Virus genome (UHGV): UHGV-1430915
DNA: 64,000 bases
Strand: one strand, 5' to 3'
Source: a virus
Made by a program: the position numbers and the translations under genes. Every line of letters begins with the position of its first letter. Positions within the stretch are counted from its first letter, which is position 1. The notes beneath the pieces are model-generated. The model ran no database searches. It saw only the letters and a program-made list of their open reading frames with translations, and was not told where the DNA came from. This document shows positions 9,211 through 31,307 of the stretch, piece after piece.

Positions 9211-9491
9211 TGATCTGTCTCCTTCTTGTTGAGCCGGAACACTGCAATAATAGCATTTCCAAGATGCAGTGTCAAATCATTCCCCAGATACCATAACATT
9301 CCACGGTCATCTTTAATGAAAGGGTAACAATCCGGTGCCTTCCAGACATTATACACTTTGCCGACCTGAAAGAAATCAGGCCCTGTTGGAATTTTAGTAC
9401 CGGGCCACACTTGGGACACCTGAACGCACTCTACCTGCATAATGACAGGGATAGTCATGGAGGTAAATGTTTTTGTTGGTTCTACTACCAT
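9207..9491 (-). CDS. small protein, member 3 of the tandem paralog family
   Basis: QVGKVYNVW...FIKDDRGMLWYLGNDL matches the family pattern. Confidence 0.45.
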   Translation of the reverse strand: MVVEPTKTFTSMTIPVIMQVECVQVSQVWPGTKIPTGPDFFQVGKVYNVWKAPDCYPFIKDDRGMLWYLGNDLTLHLGNAIIAVFRLNKKETDQ

Positions 9492-9542
9492 AAAAGTCTC
9501 CTCTCTTTGTCTAACAACACTTCCGTGTGTTGATAGTTTACA

Positions 9543-12320
9543 TTAGTGACAATCGCCCCAGTTACGACCGCACAAGTATTCACCTGTGATCTGGAACGGA
9601 ACGCCCATCATTTTAGAAGCCTGCCAGAAGCAATGCACCACCATTTCGCCCACAGGGCTCCAGATAAGTTCAAGCTTTCCGTCATCGTTCAAGATAGGAT
9701 CGTATACCGTATTTCCGTCCTTGTCAACCACTTCGTTTCCGTCCTCATCTTTGTGTGCCTTTTTGTACTTATGACCGTCGAACACATGAAGTTTAGCCTC
9801 TTGTTGGGCTTTAAATGTTTCCAGCTCTTCAATTGTGTCGAAGGTGTATACAGTTTTATACTTAGGGGTGTCAGGCACTTGAAGCTGATATTCGTCATGG
9901 TAATAAATAATACGACGAACACCTTCATCATACCATCCACGCTTCACCATTTGGTGGTGCATGAGGATTCCGACCAAGTCGCACAACGATGCACCGCCAT
10001 TTTGCTGATATGCATTAAGCAAAGAGTGTTTAGAGCGGGTCCAAATGGCATGCCCGTCAAAAGAGTAGATAAATTTCTTACCTGTTGCTTCCCAGAATTT
10101 CTCCAGATCCTCTTTGCGCCCCTTAAGACCTGGGTTGGCATCCCAGAGAGCATCAATTACTCTCTGCCCCAGTTCTGGAGAGATATCCAGCATATCTGCA
10201 ACTTTATCTTTTTGTGCCCCATACATAACCCCATACGTGATAGGTTTACCATCGTTACGAGACACCTCTCTACCTGCTACTTTTGTATATGCCTCAGCAT
10301 TGTTTTGGTGCGCGTCCCCGTTACTTACAACATCATAATACAGGCCGTTGTCAAACTCAAATGCACCCCAGGCCCCGATGAGCTGCTCTAAGTTGGACCC
10401 GTCAATACCGATCTCAAAGTATCCAGGAGGAACACCCCACAGACTACGCATCTCTTTACCCATAACCACTTTAGGAGATGGTTTAGGCATGTTTGCACAA
10501 ATACTATGTTTCTGTCTGGAAGTGTTTGTTAATCCAGAACTTTTAGCAGGAAGCTTGTGGTCAATCTTCAAACGTGGATGATTAAGAAGACCAGTATCAA
10601 CCTTATCTTCCTTGATTGGATCAAGGACCGATCTGCGGTTTCGCAATGATAACCACAAAACGATATCTTTAGCCATCTCTCCGTTCAATTTTTCAAGATT
10701 CGGGCACAGGTGTCCAAACGTATCTTTCAGTTGCGGAGAAGTAATAAGCGCTCTGGCTTTTCTACGTATCTTCCCAAACACTTCCTTTTTAATCCTTTCT
10801 GAGTTAGGGAAGCTTCGGAACTTATGCACAGTTGTCTGGAACTTGGCATCAGTTTTGTTCCAGAAGTTGATAATTAGATCACAATACTCTGACTCCAAAA
10901 GCTCGTCCATATATGCATATACTCGTGCATCAACATCTGCATCAGGTAAAGCTTTCTTCTTGCTGTCTTTAGTTACATCTTTAGTTCTCCACATTGTTGG
11001 GAGCCAACCAGCACTGATCAGGTATCGCTTGATGTCGTCCTGATTGCTGATTTTCATAGGTATCTTGCAGTCAGGCATTCGCTTCTGCTGTAGGTCACTT
11101 ATCGCCTGATCCATCAGCTCTTTAGGTAAAGGGTGTGGTGTAGAAGTTCCTTTGATATACCCCCTCAAGAAATCAGCCATCTTATCGGGGTCTTTACAGC
11201 CCATCTCTTCACACCATTTTATCCCCATCTTACTTACATCCCCTGTGGAGGTAAATGCTCGCTTAGGAGGAGCTTTGAACTCTAAAGCACTCATGTCCAC
11301 AGGGTAGCCAAGCTTGTCTTTTAACCATTTCCAACCATTATTGGAGATTGTCCCATCCTGGTTAAACGGCTTTTCAGGGAACTTAGGCCGCTGAGACATT
11401 GATAACTCTTTTAAAGGAAGTTGTGGTTCAACACGATCAGCGATCTCTTTCATCCACGCATCGCAACGGTCACGTAAAGCAATAGCCCCATCTATGTCGA
11501 AATACACCCCCTGTCGAGCCTGCAGCTCCATCAGGAAGTGCTGTAACATGCCTCGGCGTAATGCGTTCTTCCAGGTGATCTTCTTGAAGCCTTTCGGCTT
11601 CTCTTTGGCAGGATCGTACATAAAGTTCTGCATGTCAGATTTGCCGTAGAATACACCTTTTGATTCCGCTACCAACTCCTTCCAGAGCAACTCCTGAATG
11701 ATAACGTCCTCGAACACACGATCCACATACTTCCACAGCGGAAGCTCACGCCAGTCATCGATTTGAACTTTCTGGTTACCAAGGGCATAGCCCCATGCCA
11801 TAAGACCATGAGGTCCAACAGGCTGCATTTTCTTAGTAACTGGATTGAATACTGCGTCCGGACAACCTTTTGGCAAAGGGCGGTCAGGCCACAAGATTCG
11901 ACTCATCGCTAACGTATCAAACAGATTAACCTGGTGGTCGTTGATAGTTCCCATGCATTTAGGATCACGGAACATATCAAAATGAATACCGGATAATCTC
12001 TCCATCAGCATAAAGTCGTAGCTGTAGCAGTTATGACAGTTCAAAGCTGTAGGTGACCAGTCTGAGTTACCTGTAAGCCAACCCTCCAACTCTGAAAAAT
12101 CTGCTATGCGAACATCAAAATCTGTATAAAGGGTCTTCTTTGCCAGAATGAAGTTCTTAGCTTTCTCCACATCCTCTTCAGAGTAGTGTGTGTGGTCATT
12201 TAGAGGAAGGAACAGCATAAAACGGTTCTTATTCAACTCTTTAAACAAACCGCAGTGATAATAAAGATCTGGATCTTCCAGCAGGCCAGAGGCCTCAAAA
12301 TCGAAAGACCACATACTCAT
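9543..12320 (-). CDS. DNA polymerase, family A (T7 gp5-like, with 3'-5' exonuclease)
   Basis: Exo I motif FDFEASGL at residues 6-13 (the position it has in T7 gp5); motif A-like DGSNLEQL, motif B K..YG..YG, motif C YYHDE. Confidence 0.85.
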   Translation of the reverse strand: MSMWSFDFEASGLLEDPDLYYHCGLFKELNKNRFMLFLPLNDHTHYSEEDVEKAKNFILAKKTLYTDFDVRIADFSELEGWLTGNSDWSPTALNCHNCYSYDFMLMERLSGIHFDMFRDPKCMGTINDHQVNLFDTLAMSRILWPDRPLPKGCPDAVFNPVTKKMQPVGPHGLMAWGYALGNQKVQIDDWRELPLWKYVDRVFEDVIIQELLWKELVAESKGVFYGKSDMQNFMYDPAKEKPKGFKKITWKNALRRGMLQHFLMELQARQGVYFDIDGAIALRDRCDAWMKEIADRVEPQLPLKELSMSQRPKFPEKPFNQDGTISNNGWKWLKDKLGYPVDMSALEFKAPPKRAFTSTGDVSKMGIKWCEEMGCKDPDKMADFLRGYIKGTSTPHPLPKELMDQAISDLQQKRMPDCKIPMKISNQDDIKRYLISAGWLPTMWRTKDVTKDSKKKALPDADVDARVYAYMDELLESEYCDLIINFWNKTDAKFQTTVHKFRSFPNSERIKKEVFGKIRRKARALITSPQLKDTFGHLCPNLEKLNGEMAKDIVLWLSLRNRRSVLDPIKEDKVDTGLLNHPRLKIDHKLPAKSSGLTNTSRQKHSICANMPKPSPKVVMGKEMRSLWGVPPGYFEIGIDGSNLEQLIGAWGAFEFDNGLYYDVVSNGDAHQNNAEAYTKVAGREVSRNDGKPITYGVMYGAQKDKVADMLDISPELGQRVIDALWDANPGLKGRKEDLEKFWEATGKKFIYSFDGHAIWTRSKHSLLNAYQQNGGASLCDLVGILMHHQMVKRGWYDEGVRRIIYYHDEYQLQVPDTPKYKTVYTFDTIEELETFKAQQEAKLHVFDGHKYKKAHKDEDGNEVVDKDGNTVYDPILNDDGKLELIWSPVGEMVVHCFWQASKMMGVPFQITGEYLCGRNWGDCH

Positions 12321-17919: not shown

Positions 17920-18261
17920 CTACTCAAGGTCTTCAGAGTCAAGCTCAAAAAGAATCAAACTGTGCATGCCTGCAGAGAGATCAACACACCCTGCAACAAT
18001 AAGGGTTTGATAGTAAGGTTCAGCACCCTCAATATCTTCGTTAAAATCCACAACAAGGTAGTCACCTTTGTTAAAGGTGTATTTGTCCGATGTAAACGCA
18101 AAACCTGCCCAGTCCCCTACTGCAGGATCTTTATCAGTCACCTTTGTTAGCAGTAGATCTTTTTCACGAGATCTTTTAGTAAAATCGTGAATCACAACAT
18201 CCTTCTCTTCAGGAGTCGGATTGCCACACACGTAGTTAACGATATTTCTCCACAAACTCAT
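17920..18261 (-). CDS. hypothetical protein (113 aa)
   Basis: ORF track; 4-nt overlap with the helicase gene. Confidence 0.5.
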   Translation of the reverse strand: MSLWRNIVNYVCGNPTPEEKDVVIHDFTKRSREKDLLLTKVTDKDPAVGDWAGFAFTSDKYTFNKGDYLVVDFNEDIEGAEPYYQTLIVAGCVDLSAGMHSLILFELDSEDLE

Positions 18262-19628
18262 ACGTCCCCCTTTTCTGCTCTAGTTTCAAAATCTTTCCTG
18301 ACTTTCTCGTCTAAGCCAGGGAAAGTTGTATTATAAAACTCTACGACTCTCGGGTCAACAATAATATCCACCTCTCTTAATGGACGCAACAAGTTTATTC
18401 CTTGTATCGTCTTAACCCGACTCAAGGCAACATACGTCATTCCGGGAGAGAAAGCTCCGTTCTTTCCGAGGTCTAGGTTGTAACAATCTAACGTAAGTCC
18501 TTGACTTTTATGCGATGTTACTGCGTACCCAGATTTCAAAGGAAGTTGCTCATAAGACCCGATCACAACCCTCTCTATGAACTTCTCCATCTTCCTTTCG
18601 GCAATATTGTACCTCTGGGAAGGTTTGTACTCGTTATTCTCCCACAATCTTGGCTCAATTTCAACCTGTGTTCCGTCTTCTAGCTCAACTACTACGGATT
18701 TGGTCTTGAATTTTACCACTGTGGCACGTGTCCCGTTAACATAATACGGAACTTTGTGAGTAGGGTCAACATCGTTTGAGGTTATCATAACCTTCATCCC
18801 TATCTTCAGCCTCATTTCCTGCTCCACAGGTAGTGTGGAAGGGAACTTACCTTTCATTTTACCAATGTAGGTCTTCTCTGGGGCCTTGATGGCATCATAG
18901 AAACGTCTGTTCACCTCCTCTGCTTGCTTATTGGTGGCACAGATGGTCAAGGCATCTGTTGGGACACCACCATGATAGCAACGAGTGTTAAGCTCTGCTA
19001 CAACCTCTTTTATGCGACGACCTTCACGAACACAGTTCAACATTGTGGCGAAGCGAACAGATTCCTGACGGAACTGGTCTACTAAGGCTATGTTGTGAAG
19101 ATTAAGATCCTCCCAAGATTCTGTATAGCAACACAGGTCTGTGTGGTAGAAGTTGAAGTAGGCTTCTTTCTCCATAGAAGAGACAACTGGAGGTGCTTGG
19201 TAGAAATCTCCAAACAATAACACCTGAATGCCTCCGAAAGGTTTGTCATTTTTCCGAAGAAAGCGGAGTTTTCTATCCATCTCTATGAACTTGTCAGCAC
19301 GGATCATAGAGATTTCATCGATAATCAGGATGGTAAATGCCTTGCTTTTCAGAGGCTTTGCTGTTTTTGCCCTTATTGCTGTCCAGTCTGACTCCATGCT
19401 CACACCTGCGGCAAGATCGAAAGTTCGGTGCGCTGTTGCTCCATTAACGTTTAAAGCGGCTACCCCTGTCGGGGCAACCGTTATGCAAGAGTCTCCATAC
19501 ATGGACTGGATCATGTTGATAAGATATGTCTTCCCGGTTCCACCAGGTCCACTTACGAAGACATTCTCACCGCTCATGATTGCAACAAGGGCAGCATCTG
19601 TGCCTACATCGTACTGCCCTTTTTCCAT
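18258..19628 (-). CDS. SF1 DNA helicase, Dda/RecD/PIF1-like
   Basis: Walker A GPGGTGKT, Walker B IIDEISMI, C-terminal VTSHKSQG motif. Confidence 0.75.
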   Translation of the reverse strand: MEKGQYDVGTDAALVAIMSGENVFVSGPGGTGKTYLINMIQSMYGDSCITVAPTGVAALNVNGATAHRTFDLAAGVSMESDWTAIRAKTAKPLKSKAFTILIIDEISMIRADKFIEMDRKLRFLRKNDKPFGGIQVLLFGDFYQAPPVVSSMEKEAYFNFYHTDLCCYTESWEDLNLHNIALVDQFRQESVRFATMLNCVREGRRIKEVVAELNTRCYHGGVPTDALTICATNKQAEEVNRRFYDAIKAPEKTYIGKMKGKFPSTLPVEQEMRLKIGMKVMITSNDVDPTHKVPYYVNGTRATVVKFKTKSVVVELEDGTQVEIEPRLWENNEYKPSQRYNIAERKMEKFIERVVIGSYEQLPLKSGYAVTSHKSQGLTLDCYNLDLGKNGAFSPGMTYVALSRVKTIQGINLLRPLREVDIIVDPRVVEFYNTTFPGLDEKVRKDFETRAEKGDV

Positions 19629-22826: not shown

Positions 22827-23323
22827 TTATTGCGCTCCTTGTAGTAGATATGGCTCCCGAATTGAGCTGTCCTCTGCATCTTTTTTGCCCATTTCGGTCG
22901 TACTTTTGTTGTATGGTAGTGTGTTGCTCCGCCTGTTATATCCATAGCCATGTATGCAACATGGTTGTTATTATAGACCTTTAGAAGCATCTTTGCAAGA
23001 CTTTTAGCGTGATCCCATGAATCTTTTTCTGTCACCTTAAAAGTTTTGCCGTGGTTTGTCCACGAAAACTGGTTAGGTTGGTAGACAATCTTTCTTATAG
23101 TATCTGGGTATTTGGGGTGGGATTTCCTGTTTAGTGTGGCAAATCCGGATGCCAGCATACCCATCGTGCCATCCCCTCTAGCCTCCCTGTAGATATTGCA
23201 TGCTAGAATGTTTTCCTTAGTATCCGACGGCTTGCAAGTGTGATATACTTTTTGTTTTGGTGCTGCAACAACAGGCAGCGATAAAAATGCGCTCAAAATA
23301 ATAGCAAAGATTTTAATTTTCAC
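22823..23323 (-). CDS. secreted cell-wall hydrolase, SleB/CwlJ (Hydrolase_2) family; endolysin candidate
   Basis: Signal peptide MKIKIFAIILSAFLSLPVVAAP; catalytic-region motif NIYREARGDG...ATLNRK (EARG[DE] ... LNR). Confidence 0.65.
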   Translation of the reverse strand: MKIKIFAIILSAFLSLPVVAAPKQKVYHTCKPSDTKENILACNIYREARGDGTMGMLASGFATLNRKSHPKYPDTIRKIVYQPNQFSWTNHGKTFKVTEKDSWDHAKSLAKMLLKVYNNNHVAYMAMDITGGATHYHTTKVRPKWAKKMQRTAQFGSHIYYKERNK

Positions 23324-23334
23324 AATAGCTCCAA

Positions 23335-23360
23335 ATAGAAAATCCCCGCCGAAGCGGGGT
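23335..23360 (-). terminator. rho-independent terminator (minus strand), UUCG-loop family
   Basis: CCCCGC-UUCG-GCGGGG hairpin on the minus transcript followed by AUUUUCUAUUU. Confidence 0.55.
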
Positions 23361-23372
23361 GTGTCTTAGAAA

Positions 23373-23753
23373 TTAATCGTAGTGTGCCAAAATCTCTCCA
23401 TCGTTGCAAGTCCCCTCTACGAAGTTGTGAAGATTCATGCATTCATCTTGATAGAAGAATTTACCGCTTTTCAGCCGTAGACCAAACAACTCCGCATCTC
23501 CACGATGGCAAGCCTCTACAAGTTCATAGATTTCATACGGTAATTCCCCATCGTCATGGAAGAACCCCGCTTTATCGTTGACATAGATGAAGAAATAGTC
23601 ACTGCTGTCGCAAGCGTCCAGTATTTTAAACCAGATTTCATCCACATCTTTTTCTCGGATATCGATCACACAAGCGGAGCTGCATTCGTACTCCTTCTCC
23701 GGCTCCTCGGTCAATACCACCAAGTAGTTTCCCCGCTTACCTACTTTAGCCAT
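23373..23753 (-). CDS. hypothetical protein (126 aa)
   Basis: ORF track. Confidence 0.5.
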   Translation of the reverse strand: MAKVGKRGNYLVVLTEEPEKEYECSSACVIDIREKDVDEIWFKILDACDSSDYFFIYVNDKAGFFHDDGELPYEIYELVEACHRGDAELFGLRLKSGKFFYQDECMNLHNFVEGTCNDGEILAHYD

Positions 23754-23762
23754 ACAACCTCC

Positions 23763-24947
23763 TCAAGCTTTAGCTAAAATGGCGCTAAACTCTTCACCAA
23801 ACTCTTTTACAATCTTCATCAGGTTTGGGTATGCTTTGATCAGCTGAGCAACGATCTTGTCCCTGCCTTTACCAATAAGTAAGGCATTTCCTAAGGCGTT
23901 AGGTTTCATCATCGCCATAAAGACTGAGAATACAAAGTCTCGGTTCTCATCCTTGAAATTTTCCCAAAGGAAATCAAGGAAGTTTGCCACACAGCTGACG
24001 AGATCTTCGTCGGAGATACTTGCATTTTCCATCATATTACGAATAGCGATACAACCTTCAGACCCCAGAATCCACAAGATGTCTGGCTGCTTAGGACCTA
24101 CATATTCTTTGCAGCCTCCTGCCATAATCCGACCGATTTCTGGCAAGTTTCGTTTCTTGGTGTGGTAGGTCCAAATTTCTACCGCTGCAGTGTGACCAAT
24201 TGCACCTTGTAGAAGGACACGGGCCATAGCGTCAGAAATAATACCGCTGTCAAAATCGTGCAGGATGTCAGATGCAGCAACCCAAGATCGCGGTGTAGCA
24301 AAAGATGGACAATTAATCTCAGCCATGGCCTCATAATTATCGATGGCTGATGGGACTCTTTTCAGATATCCAATTACCGAGGAGTGCACCCCATTAAGGA
24401 ATGCATAGTCCTCAATAAACACCTCTGCACTGCTTGTAACTTCTACAATGATAAAGCGGTTAGCTAGAGGAGCTTCGAGCGCCGAAAGAACAGCACCGTC
24501 TGTAGCACGGTTACCTGCAGCTACAAAAACAGAGCCCTTAGGAAATGCATAGGTGCCGCACTTGTGGTCGAGCATAATTTGCATTGCAACCTTCTGCAGG
24601 TAGTTATCTGCATGAGTAAGCTCATCTAGAAAGATAATTCCGCTCCAGTCCGGATCTGCAGGCCAAAATTCTGGAATTGCAAACACTGTGCGTGTAGTCC
24701 CATCCGACTCTACAGGGATAGGTAGCCCAGATAAGTCAGCAGGATCTTTATCTGACAACCGCACGTCAACCAGGTTGTCATCTCGCTCACCGAACATATT
24801 ATCAGCAATCTGCTTCATCACCTGGCTCTTCCCCACGCCCATCGGTCCTAAAATCAGGACAGATCGGTTATGACGCTGGGCAAATTGAATAATAGCTGGC
24901 AACTCGCGGACAGTGATTTGACCACTTTCGAATACGTTTCTTGACAT
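23763..24947 (-). CDS. MoxR/CobS-type AAA+ ATPase (AAA_5)
   Basis: Walker A ILGPMGVGKS, Walker B IIFLDELTHAD, sensor region AAGNRATDG; 394 aa. Confidence 0.7.
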   Translation of the reverse strand: MSRNVFESGQITVRELPAIIQFAQRHNRSVLILGPMGVGKSQVMKQIADNMFGERDDNLVDVRLSDKDPADLSGLPIPVESDGTTRTVFAIPEFWPADPDWSGIIFLDELTHADNYLQKVAMQIMLDHKCGTYAFPKGSVFVAAGNRATDGAVLSALEAPLANRFIIVEVTSSAEVFIEDYAFLNGVHSSVIGYLKRVPSAIDNYEAMAEINCPSFATPRSWVAASDILHDFDSGIISDAMARVLLQGAIGHTAAVEIWTYHTKKRNLPEIGRIMAGGCKEYVGPKQPDILWILGSEGCIAIRNMMENASISDEDLVSCVANFLDFLWENFKDENRDFVFSVFMAMMKPNALGNALLIGKGRDKIVAQLIKAYPNLMKIVKEFGEEFSAILAKA

Positions 24948-25216
24948 TAGTAAAAGTCCTCTACTTGTGTGTAAGTGTTTTCAAAGTTTTCCAAAACAGA
25001 CATCACATCGGATCTGTCAATATCATACGCAACTCTCCAGCCATATGCAACCCTTTCTGCTGTTGCCTCTTCTGGCGCTAGTCGTCTGCTGGCATAAAAG
25101 AGTGTTGGAGTACACTTTCTTGCTTGCCCTCTAACTTTCCCATAATAATATCTGTGAATATCTTTGTCAAAATTTAATTCTTTTTCTGCACGAAGTTCGT
25201 ACTGCTGGTATAACAT
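24947..25216 (-). CDS. hypothetical protein (89 aa)
   Basis: ORF track. Confidence 0.45.
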   Translation of the reverse strand: MLYQQYELRAEKELNFDKDIHRYYYGKVRGQARKCTPTLFYASRRLAPEEATAERVAYGWRVAYDIDRSDVMSVLENFENTYTQVEDFY

Positions 25217-25260
25217 CTCTACTGCTCCTTAAGCAGCATCCTTGCCGCCATCCCTACCCA

Positions 25261-25641
25261 CTAAAATGCAGTCCGAATCCAGACAAGGTTCTTATCTGCC
25301 CAATCATAGAGGCAAGTCATTGCACTATTGAATTGCTCACACGGAGGGTAATCTTCTTCCATCTTGCGCATAGCAGAGCCTTGTGGGTAAAGCTCCCGTG
25401 CTGCAAACCACGCGTCGTAGTCATCAACGGTATCGAAGTAGTATACAACATCCTCCAACTCAGGATCGAACTTTGAACTATCAGGATCCAGCTGTTCAGG
25501 GAACTTGGAGCGTAACTTGCCAGCCACAATACTTGCCAACTCGCTAACATGTTTGTTGTCCCACTCTACCAGTTTCCCGTCTTCAGTTATGCGTCCTAAC
25601 CACTGATCATGAAGGTCAACTGTTGTCTTCCACTGGGCCAT
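25261..25641 (-). CDS. hypothetical protein (126 aa)
   Basis: ORF track. Confidence 0.5.
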   Translation of the reverse strand: MAQWKTTVDLHDQWLGRITEDGKLVEWDNKHVSELASIVAGKLRSKFPEQLDPDSSKFDPELEDVVYYFDTVDDYDAWFAARELYPQGSAMRKMEEDYPPCEQFNSAMTCLYDWADKNLVWIRTAF

Positions 25642-25643
25642 TA

Positions 25644-25901
25644 TCAGTCTACCTCTTCTTCTCGTTGCAGTTCAAGATACCCATAGGTCTGGATATCTTC
25701 AAAGGTGTGGAACTCTCCATCTGCCGCTAAGGCACGGACAACCTGGCATAGAGTTTTATAAGGTACTTTCTCCAAACCCATATTCAGCGCAGGAAAAACC
25801 TTATCTAAGTCAACAAAATATACAAACTGTAGCTCACCAGTTTCAAAAGGCGTATCTTCGATAAACATCTTCTCGGCATTAGTTAAGATTTGCACTTTCA
25901 T
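25644..25901 (-). CDS. hypothetical protein (85 aa)
   Basis: ORF track. Confidence 0.45.
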   Translation of the reverse strand: MKVQILTNAEKMFIEDTPFETGELQFVYFVDLDKVFPALNMGLEKVPYKTLCQVVRALAADGEFHTFEDIQTYGYLELQREEEVD

Positions 25902-26257
25902 TATTCTGCCTCCTCTTCTTTTTCTTCAGCATTAGTTTCAGTACCACCCCACTCTGGAGTTTCCACCTCGACAGTAAACTCACGCACTACACGGTAATTG
26001 CCCATGAAGCGCTCCACTTCTTCAAGGCTTATGGAGAGGCCATTGGCAACCAAGTCTGCAGCACCCTTCTCTACCAGGTAGTCCAGATTAGCTTCCAAGG
26101 CTTCAGGCTCAAACCCTGTCAATGCAATCATATAACCTTCCCCTTCATCAGGGAGGGCAATACAGCCCAACTGATTTTCTTTAAAAAAGCAGTGACCATC
26201 ACTATTGATTGGTTGCTCATTGCAGTAAATAGCTGCACGATAAGTAACTTTAGACAT
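25901..26257 (-). CDS. hypothetical acidic protein (118 aa)
   Basis: ORF track. Confidence 0.5.
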   Translation of the reverse strand: MSKVTYRAAIYCNEQPINSDGHCFFKENQLGCIALPDEGEGYMIALTGFEPEALEANLDYLVEKGAADLVANGLSISLEEVERFMGNYRVVREFTVEVETPEWGGTETNAEEKEEEAE

Positions 26258-26269
26258 TGATAGGCCTCC

Positions 26270-26548
26270 TTAGGCAACTGTCATTTTACATTCTTGAAAT
26301 TTTAGCACAAGACGGTGATTGTGTCTAGTGTCTAAAAAGATTTTTTCAACCATCAGGCACACGGTATAACCGTCTGTCTTGTTGACAACAAAATCCCCAG
26401 GGTGAGGGAGAATGTCCCCAGGATTGGGGAAACATAACCCGCTCAAGAAGGCATCATCGGTGGTGGACTTAATGGATTTCCACACACTATCTGCCTGAAC
26501 ATTCTCACCAACATAATATACACTACCACATGACTTCATCATAGTCAA
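26270..26548 (-). CDS. hypothetical protein (92 aa)
   Basis: ORF track. Confidence 0.45.
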   Translation of the reverse strand: MTMMKSCGSVYYVGENVQADSVWKSIKSTTDDAFLSGLCFPNPGDILPHPGDFVVNKTDGYTVCLMVEKIFLDTRHNHRLVLKFQECKMTVA

Positions 26549-27444
26549 ATCTCCGCGTAAATTAAACTGGAATCAGTATACTTCTTTAGTGGGTAAATAT
26601 CCTGTCCATAGATGCCGTCATTAAACACCTCATCTACCCAAAGGCTACACTTATATCCCATCATCTCTAAAACACCCATCTCTTCTTCGGTAAACTTATC
26701 ACCGCTCTTGCAAGATGTCAACACCTCATTCTGTACTCTTGCTACCTCGAAGCGATTATTGGCAATATCGCTATTGGCGATCAAATACTCACCTAAAGGG
26801 TGTGCGGCATTAAAGATGCACAGTGGGCGGTTGACGTAATAGTCTCCCGGTGTATAAAAATTGTTGAGATCCTTCACCAGAACATTCTTATCAGTCACTT
26901 CATTTATAACATCATGCATATCACACATCTTTATATGTTTGAGGATTCCATCCCCCATCACAAAATAAAAACTTGCTGAGACACTCTCGGCATAGATCTT
27001 ACTAGATCCGTTGTAGTTGTATTTTACGCGAATGCTTACAGGGGTTTTGCCTGTCGCGTTAGCCATCATCCAAAGGAACGGAAGTTCAAACTTCTCCTCT
27101 GAGGAAACAAAAGGTGAAGTTGCCAGAGATCGGAAACCACCAGAGAAGTTGAAAGTTACAGAGCCGCTCCGGCGATATGATACCGCATATTCTACTTTTA
27201 TATCGACATAGCCGTTGGAGTAAGTGTGGCCTCCATTATCCAGATATGTCCATTTATCAGATCCGGATACCAGCCTACGCTCAATAACCTTCATTACTAT
27301 AGGAATTAGCGGGTTGGTACAAACCGATTTTGAAGTAGCTTTATCATCCAAAGCCTCGTAAATTGCAGAAAGGATATCGCCTGCTGAGAGATTGGTTGTG
27401 ATATCTTGTTTCCACCTGGTGCTAAAACTGTTAAGATTTGCCAT
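26545..27444 (-). CDS. hypothetical protein (299 aa from MANLNSF...)
   Basis: ORF track frame; start moved to ATG at 27444 with SD AGGAG; first gene of the leftward block at the strand-switch point. Confidence 0.5.
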   Translation of the reverse strand: MANLNSFSTRWKQDITTNLSAGDILSAIYEALDDKATSKSVCTNPLIPIVMKVIERRLVSGSDKWTYLDNGGHTYSNGYVDIKVEYAVSYRRSGSVTFNFSGGFRSLATSPFVSSEEKFELPFLWMMANATGKTPVSIRVKYNYNGSSKIYAESVSASFYFVMGDGILKHIKMCDMHDVINEVTDKNVLVKDLNNFYTPGDYYVNRPLCIFNAAHPLGEYLIANSDIANNRFEVARVQNEVLTSCKSGDKFTEEEMGVLEMMGYKCSLWVDEVFNDGIYGQDIYPLKKYTDSSLIYAEI

Positions 27445-27526
27445 GATTAGGTGCTCCTGTGTTCGTTTTCTTTCGAATGGGTGCACTATATCGTGGATTT
27501 AGAGTAAAGTCAACACGTTTTTGAGG

Positions 27527-27555
27527 TTGACATCTTCCCAAGCACTTGATAAGAT
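27527..27555 (+). promoter_or_regulatory. sigma70-like promoter, rightward (TTGACA-17-TAAGAT) at the divergent strand switch
   Basis: TTGACA at 27527-27532, 17-nt spacer, TAAGAT at 27550-27555. Confidence 0.55.
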
Positions 27556-27586
27556 TTCTCCACCTACAGAGCACAAGAGACAACTC

Positions 27587-28576
27587 ATGAATCTTGAAAA
27601 ATATTATACACCAGAAGAGTTAGAGCGCCTGCTCAAAAAATATAGACGCAAACAGAATAATGCACGGAAACGAGATATAGAGTTCAACCTGTCATGGGAA
27701 GAATACCTCCTATTTGGTAAAAAACTTTTAGGAGATGGGGTATGCGACTATACCCTTATACCTTTCGACATGCACACAGATGAAAACGGACTGGGAAATC
27801 CTTTCTACCCATCTCTAGAGCGGATAGATGATGAAGGTCCTTATGCGGTTGATAACTGCTGTGTGGTGGGATTGAGATGCAACTCTCTAAAGGACTGTCT
27901 GGTAGATAAAAAGACCGCAGTCTTGATTAAAGACAAAACTGATCGAAAAATTGTCCAGCAGATGATGCTCCACCTGAGCGAAGAGCGCATGGAGAAATTG
28001 AAAGGTGATTACACTTTTGAAGATTTCATCTTGCAATATGGGACGGAAGAGGATAAACTGGCACTCTTTGACGAAGAATGGGAGGAAGATATGTCACCAA
28101 TGCAGGATTTTAAAAACTTCATGGCTAATCGTGGAGCCAACAAGCACATTTCTGACATCGTAAATGAGCCTATAACAGAAGAGATTGAAGAAATGATGCA
28201 ACAGGATCACGAAGAGGAAAAAGAGCCTCAAGGGGGCGAAGAAGAGCTTACAGAAGAGGTTCCTGCACTGCCTGACGATGTTGAGATTGCCAAAGCTTAC
28301 ACTTTCTATTGCCAGACGTTCTACGATGCGGGTATGAAAGTTGATTTGTCATTCAGCCAGTTTAAGAGCACATACATCCGAAAATGTTGTGCTTTAACTG
28401 GTGAGCGTCTCGGGGTCGGACTTAAACCACTATTAGTGACCGACTGGAATAAAGGTTTCACCAAGGGTAACTTTATGGTAGTATCTCCAATTATGGAGAA
28501 GGCTATGACAGACCTTATGAAGACAACTCGCATGACAATGACCGAGTTGGCTGGTATTTTCAAGCACGTTAAATAA
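27587..28576 (+). CDS. hypothetical protein with a degenerate His-Me/HNH-like cysteine-rich segment
   Basis: Start set at ATG 27587 (MNLEKYY...); segment GDGVCDYT...SLERIDDEGPYAVDNCCVVGLRCNSLKDC resembles an HNH/EndoVII zinc-finger spacing but lacks the catalytic His. Confidence 0.4.
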   Translation: MNLEKYYTPEELERLLKKYRRKQNNARKRDIEFNLSWEEYLLFGKKLLGDGVCDYTLIPFDMHTDENGLGNPFYPSLERIDDEGPYAVDNCCVVGLRCNSLKDCLVDKKTAVLIKDKTDRKIVQQMMLHLSEERMEKLKGDYTFEDFILQYGTEEDKLALFDEEWEEDMSPMQDFKNFMANRGANKHISDIVNEPITEEIEEMMQQDHEEEKEPQGGEEELTEEVPALPDDVEIAKAYTFYCQTFYDAGMKVDLSFSQFKSTYIRKCCALTGERLGVGLKPLLVTDWNKGFTKGNFMVVSPIMEKAMTDLMKTTRMTMTELAGIFKHVK

Positions 28577-28588
28577 TGACAGGGGCCA

Positions 28589-30070
28589 ATGGCCCCTTCT
28601 GGAGTTTTAATGGATAGCAGAAGTTCAGAAATCATTGCCGCACAAAAAGATGACGCCTTGCGAATGCTGCAGGCAGCACGCATGTATCTTCTTGAAAAGC
28701 TGCCGTTTTATGGCACACTGTTGTCAGGGTTGCAGTTCGTAGAAAACCACACATGGTGCTCCACTATGGCAACAGACCATAAACGCATCTACTACAGCCC
28801 TGAGTTCATTATGGGGTTGGCAGATGAGCGTAAAACCATTCTTAAAGCATCTCTGACTGACAAGCAGTTTGAGATGGCTGAGGTTTTCTATTCCCCAAAA
28901 TCTGTGAAAGAGGTGGCCTTTCTTCTGTCACATGAGGTGGGGCATATTATCTGTGATCATCTGGTCCGTGGTAAAAGCTTTGAGCCGGAACTGTTCAATA
29001 TTGCTTGTGATCACGTTATCAACACAGGTCTTGTGGTTGACTTTAGCAAGCCTCCTTGTGTTTTCTTCCCGAAGGGGAAAAGTACTGAGTTCGTAAAAGG
29101 TAAGCCTTTTGGCTTCTTAGCTAGTTGCTACTGTGACATGAGGTTCCATGGATGGATTGCTGAGAACGTTTATGCAGTTCTTGATAAGCAAAGAGATCAG
29201 AATAGCGGTAAAAGTAAGAACGGTAAAGGAGAGAACTCTCAAGGAGATAAACGACAAACCGATGATCACATGAGTGGGAACGGTGGAACTAGTGATGATC
29301 TTGGAAAGGCTATGGGGTATGATCAGCCACAGCCAGTGATCAGTCAATCTGATAAAGATCAAGCCATGCAGGACTCTGGTGACATGTTGGAAGCAGCAAT
29401 GCAAGCTTCCGGAGGTCGTTGCCCAGAGGCGGTGCGTGAGTTTGTCAAGAACAGAGGTAAGCCTGTAATCAATTATATAGACATCATTAAGCAACGTATG
29501 TTGTCCAAACGAAAGGCTGAACTAACCTACAGAAAACCTGGTCGCCGATCTGGGTCTTTGACCAGCACAATGCGAAAAGTTGGGGCTATAAAAAAGAATC
29601 AGCACGTTGTTGTTCCTGGTCGTAATCCGGAAAACACTATAGATATTGTGGTGGCTTTAGACGTTTCTGGGTCGATCTCACAAAGAACTTTAAAGAAAAT
29701 GTTCAATGAGATCACTGGGTTGTGCAATCTATATAAAGAGTTCAAGGTTACGATGTTCTGCTGGTCAACCGAGGTTGGAGAGGTTAAAGTATACACTCGT
29801 GGGAACATCGACGAGATGATCAACTATGAGGTCCACTCAACATGGGGCACAACAGCCGCTTGCGTGTTCAAGTATCTGGACGCTAACATACCAAATGCAA
29901 AAGATGTCATCGTCCTGACCGACCTATACTTTGAGCATAACTTTGAACAAAAGGCTGTTGACAACAAGTGGAAAAAGTACGATACTTTATGGGTTCTCAC
30001 CGAAGGGTATAATAAAAATTATATCCCAAGCTTTGGGAAAACTGTAGAATTGATCGAGTACGCTAAATAA
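28589..30070 (+). CDS. VWA-domain protein with N-terminal putative metallopeptidase (HExxH) domain; DUF2201/CobT-like, typical MoxR partner
   Basis: HEVGH zinc-binding motif; MIDAS motif VVALDVSGSIS. Confidence 0.65.
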   Translation: MAPSGVLMDSRSSEIIAAQKDDALRMLQAARMYLLEKLPFYGTLLSGLQFVENHTWCSTMATDHKRIYYSPEFIMGLADERKTILKASLTDKQFEMAEVFYSPKSVKEVAFLLSHEVGHIICDHLVRGKSFEPELFNIACDHVINTGLVVDFSKPPCVFFPKGKSTEFVKGKPFGFLASCYCDMRFHGWIAENVYAVLDKQRDQNSGKSKNGKGENSQGDKRQTDDHMSGNGGTSDDLGKAMGYDQPQPVISQSDKDQAMQDSGDMLEAAMQASGGRCPEAVREFVKNRGKPVINYIDIIKQRMLSKRKAELTYRKPGRRSGSLTSTMRKVGAIKKNQHVVVPGRNPENTIDIVVALDVSGSISQRTLKKMFNEITGLCNLYKEFKVTMFCWSTEVGEVKVYTRGNIDEMINYEVHSTWGTTAACVFKYLDANIPNAKDVIVLTDLYFEHNFEQKAVDNKWKKYDTLWVLTEGYNKNYIPSFGKTVELIEYAK

Positions 30071-30085
30071 GAGAGGATGTTATTT

Positions 30086-30346
30086 ATGGCAACAGAAGTA
30101 GTAATTAAAGCTGAACGCCCAGTTAAAAAAGCTATCAACACGTTTCCTGTAGGGACCATTGTGAGCATGATTACAGAGTCAGGTCGTGTATCTACACTGC
30201 TGATCGTGAAATCTGCATGCTCATCTTGTGTGTGGGCATATGATCTTGACGAGAAAGAACTGAAAGATTTTGTTGGAGAGCTGAAAGCAACAGAGCTTGA
30301 CGCTCGTATCGAAGTGTTTGGTGAAACTATGGAGGAAGAACAATGA
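30086..30346 (+). CDS. small protein, member 1 of a plus-strand tandem paralog trio
   Basis: Start at second ATG (30086, 9 nt after SD GAGAGGA); shares AE(R)P...F.(V/C)G(T/E)(I/V)V ... pattern with the next two genes. Confidence 0.45.
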   Translation: MATEVVIKAERPVKKAINTFPVGTIVSMITESGRVSTLLIVKSACSSCVWAYDLDEKELKDFVGELKATELDARIEVFGETMEEEQ

Positions 30347-30606
30347 CCACAAAAATAACCATTGCAGAACCGAAAGCTAACACGCAGCCTATCGAAAAGT
30401 TTAAATGCGGTGAGGTGGTAACATTCACACCTGACAATGAAGATGCTAAGATTTTCGCCATGGTCACAGCCGAGTGGATGTGTGACAACACCACACAGGT
30501 TCTGCGTTTTGACACCTATCTTACAGATGAAATCAGGAACGATAAGATCGTGACTGGTGTGGATACTGAGATTATTTTCTACAAGAGCTTTTTAGAAGGT
30601 TTCTGA
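30343..30606 (+). CDS. small protein, member 2 of the plus-strand paralog trio
   Basis: ORF track; ATGA overlap with the upstream gene. Confidence 0.45.
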   Translation: MTTKITIAEPKANTQPIEKFKCGEVVTFTPDNEDAKIFAMVTAEWMCDNTTQVLRFDTYLTDEIRNDKIVTGVDTEIIFYKSFLEGF

Positions 30607-30607
30607 T

Positions 30608-30841
30608 ATGGCGAAAATTCGTAAATTATCCAGCAATCAGGTTGTGAAAGACTTTGAATCTGGAGAGATTCTGTATGTTCGTGATGCAGATGACGAAGGT
30701 GAAGATCTTGTTATGCTAGTAGGACACGCTGAAGACGGATGCATCCAAGCCGTTTTTCTTGAAACAGCCATGGTGCACTGGATAGAGCTGGACCTGAAAG
30801 CACGAAAACCTAAAGCAGAAATCCTGATTTACGAAGATTAA
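30608..30841 (+). CDS. small protein, member 3 of the plus-strand paralog trio
   Basis: ORF track; FESGEILYVRDADDEGEDLVMLVG matches the family pattern. Confidence 0.45.
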   Translation: MAKIRKLSSNQVVKDFESGEILYVRDADDEGEDLVMLVGHAEDGCIQAVFLETAMVHWIELDLKARKPKAEILIYED

Positions 30842-30857
30842 CAAAAAGGAGAGAGCC

Positions 30858-31307
30858 GTGTTGAGCAAACGTGAATGCGACAGCATTAGCCTGAATTCTT
30901 ATAAGAAACAATGGTTTGGGGTGGAAGTTTGCCGACTGCGGCTAGGCTCCTACCTGAACTTCGTTTATTATGAGAGTGATAGTCGTATTGTTTCTTATGA
31001 AGTGTTCTACACCAAGAACACCTTCGAACTGCGCCGTAAAGTGGATGGTGGGAGAACTACCCCCCAGAATAATTGGGAAACTATCCTACCTACGGATGTT
31101 ATAGGAAGTCCCCTGAATGTATCTGAAGATGAAAATCTTATGGTTCATGCTATGATGGGACTTGACAGCTTAGAGCTGGCGATCTATGATATGTCCATCG
31201 AAGCAGTTAAGCTGGACTACATCGAAAACACTTTAGAGGAAGGTATCAAGAAGTTCCTCAGTGAGAAATTAAAAGACCACTTTCATAAGGAGCTATACCT
31301 GTTATGA
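30858..31307 (+). CDS. hypothetical protein (149 aa)
   Basis: ORF track. Confidence 0.5.
   Translation: MLSKRECDSISLNSYKKQWFGVEVCRLRLGSYLNFVYYESDSRIVSYEVFYTKNTFELRRKVDGGRTTPQNNWETILPTDVIGSPLNVSEDENLMVHAMMGLDSLELAIYDMSIEAVKLDYIENTLEEGIKKFLSEKLKDHFHKELYLL

Follow-up and report, generated by a model that had tools for sequence, protein, structure and literature searches.

The UHGV virus genome UHGV-1430915, analysed here as one stretch of 64,000 nucleotides (the window), is that of a Vequintavirus, an rV5/FV3-like coliphage. On opposite strands, across a strand switch, it carries a gene for a MoxR-clade AAA+ ATPase and a gene for a DUF2201 protein that combines a zincin-like metallopeptidase domain with a von Willebrand factor A (VWA) domain. 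These genes are one pair, the gp24/gp25-type module of phage N4, and their separation is a stable rearrangement kept in four genera of the Vequintavirinae. We put at roughly 55% the probability that the pair encodes an early-expressed remodelling and proteolysis machine for counter-defence. This reading is favoured because the ATPase site, the metal ion-dependent adhesion site (MIDAS) of the VWA domain and the HExxH peptidase motif are all intact, and because the peptidase-VWA protein has a disordered linker. Genetic evidence comes from Bas54 (phage MaxBurger, MZ501093.1), another isolate of Vequintavirus, whose gene order is the same as that of the window.

The two open reading frames (ORFs) match the ORF list exactly as described in an earlier reading made from the letters alone (the sequence-only reading), which placed them about 3.6 kb apart; the measured gap is 3,641 bp, and the genes belong to divergent units. 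The features of the ATPase are given below, with invariance referring to an alignment of 57 sequences.

23763-24947, minus strand: MoxR-clade AAA+ ATPase, 394 amino acids (aa); orthologue of Bas54 bas54_0063 and of N4 gp24
24825-24848, minus strand: Walker A, GPMGVGKS, residues 34-41; G37, G39, K40 and S41 invariant
24621-24638, minus strand: Walker B, IIFLDE, residues 104-109; D108 and E109 invariant
24456-24512, minus strand: presumed sensor-1 N146/R147 to R164 of the ANRF motif; N146, R147, N163 and R164 invariant

R220 is likewise invariant in this alignment. The N146/R147 region we take to be sensor-1 and R164 the arginine finger, roles that we assume from what is known of AAA+ proteins. 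Scans of the ATPase against Pfam, NCBIfam and PADLOC gave sub-threshold P-loop matches only, and a single-sequence search of the PDB returned matches to the Walker A region only, none better than E 1e-4. Homologues at E ~1e-45, with 31-36% identity, carry AAA_3 (PF07726), AAA_5 (PF07728) and sometimes bpMoxR. Among the 57 aligned family members, 28 show an AAA_5 or AAA_3 match at E <= 1e-3 (best E 2.4e-9), none of them from the Vequintavirinae; bpMoxR is found in nine, and the window ATPase itself matches it weakly. When the family profile was compared with the PDB, the top match was midasin (2e-11). The AlphaFold2 (AF2) model, with a predicted local distance difference test score (pLDDT) of 85, displays the helix-2 beta-hairpin insert and the pre-sensor-1 hairpin of the AAA+ clade 7 fold, and the structures closest to it are MoxR, dynein or midasin. 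We therefore accept the ATPase as a divergent branch of the MoxR/midasin/dynein clade on the basis of its homologues and fold rather than of a direct match to a hidden Markov model (HMM), which sustains its earlier designation as MoxR-type.

For the partner, invariance was assessed in an alignment of 54 homologues reaching down to ~20% identity.

28589-30070, plus strand: DUF2201 protein with a zincin-like metallopeptidase domain and a VWA domain, longest ORF 493 aa; orthologue of bas54_0055 and of N4 gp25
28931-28960, plus strand: zinc-binding/catalytic motif HEVGHIICDH (HExxHxxxxH), residues 115-124; H115, E116, H119 and H124 invariant
29222-29293, plus strand: disordered linker rich in Gly, Ser, Asp and Lys, residues 212-235, in the N-terminal half of the protein; pLDDT < 50
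29660-29674, plus strand: MIDAS DxSxS (DVSGS), residues 358-362; D358, S360 and S362 invariant
29849-29851 and 29921-29923, plus strand: T421 and D445, completing the MIDAS; both invariant

Both domains of this protein pass their Pfam cut-offs: DUF2201_N, "putative metallopeptidase" (PF13203), scores 99.1 bits against a cut-off of 23.2 over residues 95-321, and DUF2201, "VWA-like" (PF09967), scores 40.1 bits against 26.4 over residues 353-488. No match was found in NCBIfam, in PADLOC or in a single-sequence PDB search. With both families above threshold and the key residues invariant, the HEVGH zinc motif (residues 115-119) and the MIDAS-containing VWA domain do reside in one protein, as had been claimed. 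The order of a peptidase-like domain followed by a VWA domain is common to all 61 homologues retrieved by word index, and the DUF2201 family comprises 15,018 clusters at 50% identity (E <= 1e-30). A low-complexity stretch comparable to the linker occurs in the consensus of the bacterial homologues, a subset whose members are 91-97% identical to each other. In the AF2 model (pLDDT 85) the VWA part adopts a Rossmann-like fold, so that both of the folds predicted earlier, AAA+ and VWA, are seen in the models. Fold searches with the whole model matched the VWA part only, and the family profile gave only weak matches in the PDB, at the HExxH region, to M48/BepA/HtpX and to MJ1213 (E 0.05-0.5).

That the ATPase and the DUF2201 protein are partners follows from the linkage of their genes elsewhere, in phages and in a bacterium. 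A sample from IMG/VR yielded 80 loci encoding a relative of the ATPase, eight of which were uninformative since the contig ended too soon. In 69 of the 72 informative loci a DUF2201 gene directly follows the ATPase gene in the same direction, and the median gap between them is 72 nt. In two others, genes are inserted before the contig ends, and the single split locus is a Vequintavirus itself. The same adjacency is present in N4, in a phage-like metagenome contig and in the bacterium Sulfurivermis fontis, and profiles built for the window proteins identify N4 gp24 (1e-57) and gp25 (1e-84). Searches by tblastn retrieved 729 phage records with the ATPase and 489 with the partner, among them N4-like phages, Rak2/121Q-like jumbo phages, Atu_ph07 and cyanophage S-TIM5. 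Both genes are retained in each of the five genera of Vequintavirinae that were examined, and the ratio of non-synonymous to synonymous substitutions (dN/dS) within the genus of the window is 0.02-0.04 for each gene, pointing to strong purifying selection. The partnership between a MoxR ATPase and a VWA protein, assumed by the sequence-only reading on general grounds, is thus seen in nearly all other phages and in the bacterium as adjacent, co-directional genes.

Gene orientation and GC skew both switch at ~27.5 kb in the window, where promoter matches stand back-to-back, which confirms the strand switch and divergent units noticed earlier. Vequintavirus, Mydovirus, Seunavirus and Henunavirus all have this divergent layout, with the two genes 3.6-4.6 kb apart. 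One unit contains an "anti-sigma-like" gene, in some cases small genes, and then the DUF2201 gene; the other includes the ATPase gene and, further on, a cell-wall hydrolase and rIIA. In the fifth genus, represented by Certrevirus phiTE, the MoxR gene, an inserted HNH gene and the DUF2201 gene follow each other on one strand. The inserted phiTE gene is homing-endonuclease-like (9226-9738) and lies exactly between the MoxR and DUF2201 genes. Since the genes are adjacent in every outgroup, the split is derived; and since the identity of the ATPase between the genera that carry the split is only 44-54%, it is old.

Function has been addressed for the orthologues in Bas54 by a preprint describing HIDEN-SEQ, a transposon-sequencing study of this phage (bioRxiv 10.1101/2025.11.20.689424). 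The ATPase bas54_0063 is identical to that of the window at 390/394 positions (99%), and bas54_0055 to the VWA protein at 477/486 (98%). Both genes are non-essential on E. coli K-12, with 60 of 64 TA sites hit in bas54_0063 and 81 of 86 in bas54_0055. On the uropathogenic E. coli (UPEC) strain CFE311, ATPase mutants vanish, with a log2 fold change (log2FC) of -7.23 and an adjusted p of 0. Clean knockouts of bas54_0063, and likewise of bas54_0140, are each specifically sensitive to a cloned two-gene system, DS-28 (10.1101/2025.11.20.689424). DS-28 is a plasmid-associated candidate defence system, and its plasmid association is all that our literature searches yielded on it. The same screen holds a signal for the partner gene: bas54_0055 is depleted on CFE311 with a log2FC of -2.20 (p 0.0009, adjusted p 0.009), and its flanking genes are not significant. 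The authors of the preprint are silent both on this depletion and on the MoxR-VWA relationship (10.1101/2025.11.20.689424). We noted that in Extended Data Table 8 the sheet "Data S6" is titled K-12_vs_CFE303, although its command line and inputs are those of CFE311, and that the following sheet gives the same values again. Literature searches on DUF2201 and on rV5 with MoxR, the CRISPRi-ART paper and another phage transposon paper gave no functional data on these genes. The earlier suggestion that the pair "could remodel a host or phage complex" fits the need for the 99%-identical Bas54 ATPase against DS-28, and the statement that such phage genes have no known role is outdated for the ATPase.

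Taking these observations together, we propose that the two genes encode the halves of one machine, a MoxR-clade ATPase and a partner built of zincin, linker and VWA domains. If the pair works like NorQ/NorD, CbbQ/CbbO and RavA/ViaA, the ATPase would form a hexameric ring on which the VWA domain would dock with a finger in the pore. The MIDAS might then bind a target protein through an acidic residue, and ATP hydrolysis would pull on the partner, the target or both, so that the target is remodelled and could be cut by the zincin domain. The target would most likely be a host protein tied to phage defence. The evidence shows the identity, motifs and folds of the two proteins, the linkage of their genes in other phages, purifying selection on both and the published knockout and transposon phenotypes; we infer hexamer formation, VWA docking, joint action of the two proteins in the split layout and proteolysis of a host defence component.

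Several points weigh against a counter-defence machine of this kind. The ATPase stays below every Pfam cut-off (AAA_5 16.9 against 22 bits, bpMoxR 15.7 against 27, no match to AAA_3), so that of the two HMM matches anticipated from the sequence the one to DUF2201/VWA was obtained directly, and the one to AAA_5 through homologues and fold but not in the protein itself. PDB and fold searches found no solved structural relative of the N-terminal domain. The module consists of core genes in N4-like phages, extends over >15,000 clusters and evolves under strong purifying selection, which is atypical of a dedicated anti-defence gene. A core, widespread and slowly evolving module suggests a more basic role, with evasion of DS-28 possibly indirect; such evasion may follow, among other effects, from a broader activity in host takeover. 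On CFE311, mutants of the peptidase-VWA gene are depleted ~4.6-fold as compared to >100-fold for the ATPase, so that most of the anti-DS-28 activity of the ATPase survives the loss of its presumed partner. Remodelling by itself could account for the larger part of the effect, the two roles could be partly separate, or the peptidase effect could have nothing to do with DS-28. The evidence for bas54_0055 comes from whole-strain transposon sequencing rather than from cloned DS-28, and with 27 genes significant on CFE311 its depletion could stem from another feature of that strain. The second strong DS-28 gene is not the VWA gene but the unrelated 99-aa bas54_0140, which was looked for in the window and is not there. 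The phenotype data come from a preprint, and DS-28 is mechanistically uncharacterised.

A broader version of the proposal, which we hold only tentatively, is that the gp24/gp25-type module is a widespread phage unfoldase-adaptor-protease, in which the MIDAS would capture host immune proteins including DS-28, the MoxR ring would remodel them and the zincin domain would cut them. If so, the module would be the phage-side mirror image of the bacterial defence systems that combine MoxR, vWA and peptidase components. ATP-driven remodelling alone would disarm the defence and proteolysis would only make the disarming irreversible, in keeping with the old split and the weaker peptidase phenotype. A function would then be at hand for two core genes that count as "unknown" in N4-like phages and in many jumbo phages.

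The split might instead have uncoupled the genes, leaving the ATPase, alone or with a bas54_0140-type protein, as the anti-DS-28 factor and the zincin-VWA protein with a separate job. The two genes do lie in different transcription units in four genera, their CFE311 phenotypes are far apart (-7.23 and -2.20), and the second DS-28-specific gene encodes an unrelated small protein. We consider uncoupling less likely, though a real alternative: the Vequintavirinae always keep both genes, with active-site and MIDAS residues intact and dN/dS of 0.02-0.04, the genes have stayed 3.6-4.6 kb apart on the flanks of one divergent promoter region, and everywhere else they form an adjacent two-gene unit. 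The VWA gene, too, is significantly depleted on CFE311, and the window has no further VWA or MoxR paralogue.

A role as a chaperone and protease that folds and trims structural proteins during virion assembly was proposed for the jumbo-phage pair by Iyer et al. (2021), by analogy with the MoxR-vWA proteins in tail development of the Acidianus two-tailed virus; gp24 and gp25 are also core genes in N4-like phages and lie near a second structural module in roseophage RPP1. For the Vequintavirus pair such a role appears improbable, given that insertions at ~94% of the TA sites in either gene leave fitness on K-12 normal, that the genes lie in the early/replication arm behind matches to host-type promoters and not in the structural module, that Bas54 has a separate prohead protease, and that loss of the ATPase shows its effect specifically against a cloned defence system. 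Least credible is a metal-insertion (chelatase) system of the CobS/CobT or NorQ/NorD kind acting on a metalloenzyme, as no CobS, CobT or chelatase match was obtained in Pfam or NCBIfam, the partner has an invariant HExxH peptidase motif that chelatase partners lack, no metalloenzyme or cofactor gene is nearby, and the observed phenotype is defence evasion.

Returning to the counter-defence machine, its early timing was examined through the control elements around the two genes. A scan for the sigma70 consensus gave two matches of 10/12 positions each, which are pattern matches only, in the region between the units, and a terminator-like element was found beyond the ATPase.

27485-27555, both strands: putative divergent control region
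27513-27485, minus strand: leftward promoter match, TTGACT-17-TATAGT
27527-27555, plus strand: rightward promoter match, TTGACA-17-TAAGAT, with TG
23359-23344, minus strand: terminator-like GC-rich hairpin and T-run, CCCCGCTTCGGCGGGG then ATTTTCTATT, after the 126-aa ORF that follows the ATPase

Because the promoter matches stand back-to-back, separate units need not mean different timing. In our favoured explanation both genes are expressed early, probably from host-type promoters. In N4, gp24 and gp25 are middle genes, expressed before the late genes. The ATPase gene is the seventh in the leftward unit, which runs on into rIIA, rIIB, a helicase, methyltransferases, a primase/helicase and DNA polymerase; a unit with rIIA/B, helicase, primase and polymerase supports the early/replication setting that had been suggested. 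A further sigma70 match (11/12, TTGACA-17-TATTAT) lies at 25170-25142 on the minus strand, inside the 89-aa ORF just upstream of the ATPase gene, and could give the ATPase its own transcript.

The start of the VWA gene probably lies at the second ATG, at 28610, which has GGAG 5 nt upstream, is used by GenBank and by the cluster representative, and gives a protein of 486 aa. The first ATG, at 28589, sits within a perfect 7-bp GC hairpin, AGGGGCC-AAT-GGCCCCT (28581-28597), which might influence translation or show where the message of the upstream gene ends.

The genes surrounding the pair were considered as further components, starting with the immediate neighbour of the ATPase.

24947-25216, minus strand: 89-aa ORF whose stop overlaps the start of the ATPase gene (TAATG)

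This ORF is confined to Vequintavirus, and its Bas54 orthologue, bas54_0062, has no phenotype (log2FC +0.24); its family, phrog_13164, carries an "ATPase" label without having any ATPase features. On the other side, between the ATPase and the terminator, a 126-aa ORF (23373-23753, minus strand) is conserved as strongly as the ATPase (dN/dS 0.01-0.035), matches no known family, and has a Bas54 counterpart that shows no phenotype. Directly upstream of the VWA gene in the four genera lies a gene for a 351-aa "anti-sigma factor" (27587-28576, plus strand), which has no Pfam match and no Bas54 phenotype and is absent beside the pair in other phages; PHROG comparisons relate the N-terminal third of this protein to endonuclease VII and to Srd-type families. 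The first gene of the leftward unit, a "putative alpha 1-3 fucosyltransferase" (26545-27444, minus strand), has no Pfam match at E <= 0.01, and its label looks inherited, without support. As components of the system we rejected all of these neighbours (the 351-aa "anti-sigma factor", the 89-aa ORF, the 126-aa ORFs and the "fucosyltransferase"), their loci being limited to Vequintavirus and Mydovirus and their Bas54 counterparts having no phenotype. Further along the leftward unit, the helicase next to rIIB (~18258-19628, minus strand), an orthologue of bas54_0068, is non-essential on K-12 and strongly depleted on CFE311 (log2FC -6.32), which makes it another conditionally essential gene of the window; the main text of the preprint does not discuss it. 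A scan of the window for tRNA and Rfam elements found none.

The 8-kb stretch around the pair (23000-31000) has matches of 93-97% identity in 122 phage records. Escherichia Vequintavirus (rV5, FV3 and BASEL phages) accounts for nearly all of them, and phage S127 BCL3 is the closest at 97.1%. Sixteen records named "Campylobacter phage", with C. jejuni as host, are ~94% identical to E. coli Vequintaviruses over these 8 kb; this looks like a mislabelled host or a contaminating coliphage, not a true host jump.

Public labels for these genes include "MoxR ATPase", "metallopeptidase" and "VWA-like", as well as the mistaken "HNH endonuclease", "anti-sigma factor" and "DNA repair ATPase"; the CobS/CobT-like labels that the sequence-only reading expected are not among them. 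Wrong labels for the VWA/zincin gene, "homing endonuclease" among them, occur in PHROGs (phrog_1314) as well as in many records, and no HNH domain is detectable in it. For genome annotation, this gene is wrongly called an "HNH endonuclease", an "anti-sigma factor" or a "DNA repair ATPase".

The pair as such is already known: it has been annotated and described (Iyer et al. 2021) and the phenotype of the ATPase is published, so that it does not constitute new biology. What we add is that the Vequintavirus genes belong to one module with N4 gp24/gp25 and with the pair of the jumbo phages, that the split is placed in four genera of one subfamily, and that a published screen already holds a signal for the partner gene. 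Seeing the "putative metallopeptidase" 3.6 kb away as the canonical partner turns a one-gene anti-defence hit into a testable two-component mechanism. The genetics of Bas54 are the first handle on a very large family that includes two core genes of N4-like phages and the conserved pair of Rak2-like jumbo phages.

Among known systems, Bas54 shows essentially no difference from the window. The N4 proteins of Schitoviridae, gp24 (AAA ATPase) and gp25 (vWFA), belong to the same families and have the same domain content as the window pair, and are two of the 14 genes that make up the core of N4-like phages, with their function listed as unknown. They differ in that their genes are adjacent and co-directional whereas those of the window are divergent, and in sequence, the ATPases being ~27% identical and the VWA proteins ~22%. 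The MoxR and metallopeptidase-vWA proteins described as a chaperone/co-chaperone pair in group 2.2 (Rak2/121Q-like) jumbo phages (Iyer et al. 2021) have the same architecture, with an N-terminal metallopeptidase on the vWA protein, and are ~24-28% identical to the window proteins; tblastn links 121Q, PBECO4, K64-1 and GAP32 to both. The virion-assembly role proposed for that pair is not supported by the Bas54 data for Vequintavirus.

The cellular couples NorQ/NorD, CbbQ/CbbO, RavA/ViaA and BchI/BchD share the AAA+ clade, with its helix-2 insert and pre-sensor-1 hairpin, and a MIDAS-bearing VWA partner, and they provide the best structural matches. They differ from the window pair in that a peptidase domain is missing from their partners and in that they act on metabolic enzymes, with metal insertion or inhibitor release as the outcome; their sequence similarity to the window ATPase is marginal. 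In cryo-electron microscopy of NorQ/NorD, a finger of the VWA domain enters the pore of a MoxR hexamer, and a linker of the VWA protein is remodelled by the ATPase. Work on this couple also shows that carboxylates of the client are required; a general docking mode for MoxR and VWA proteins has already been proposed in the literature. CobS/CobT of cyanophages and T4-like phages are likewise a phage-borne MoxR-like ATPase with a VWA partner, but CobT lacks a HExxH domain, and we rejected a CobS/CobT identity for the window pair after scans of Pfam (E <= 0.01) and NCBIfam gave no match to CobS_N, CobT or CobT_C. The bacterial MoxR-vWA "ternary" conflict systems, in which the fusion of peptidase effectors to vWA is a recognised design (Kaur et al. 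2020), resemble the window pair in their MoxR ATPase, their peptidase-fused vWA and their use in virus-host conflict. They differ in serving host defence with a third component (VMAP, iSTAND, FtsH or a beta-propeller), whereas the window carries a two-gene module on the side of the phage, with no conserved third gene.

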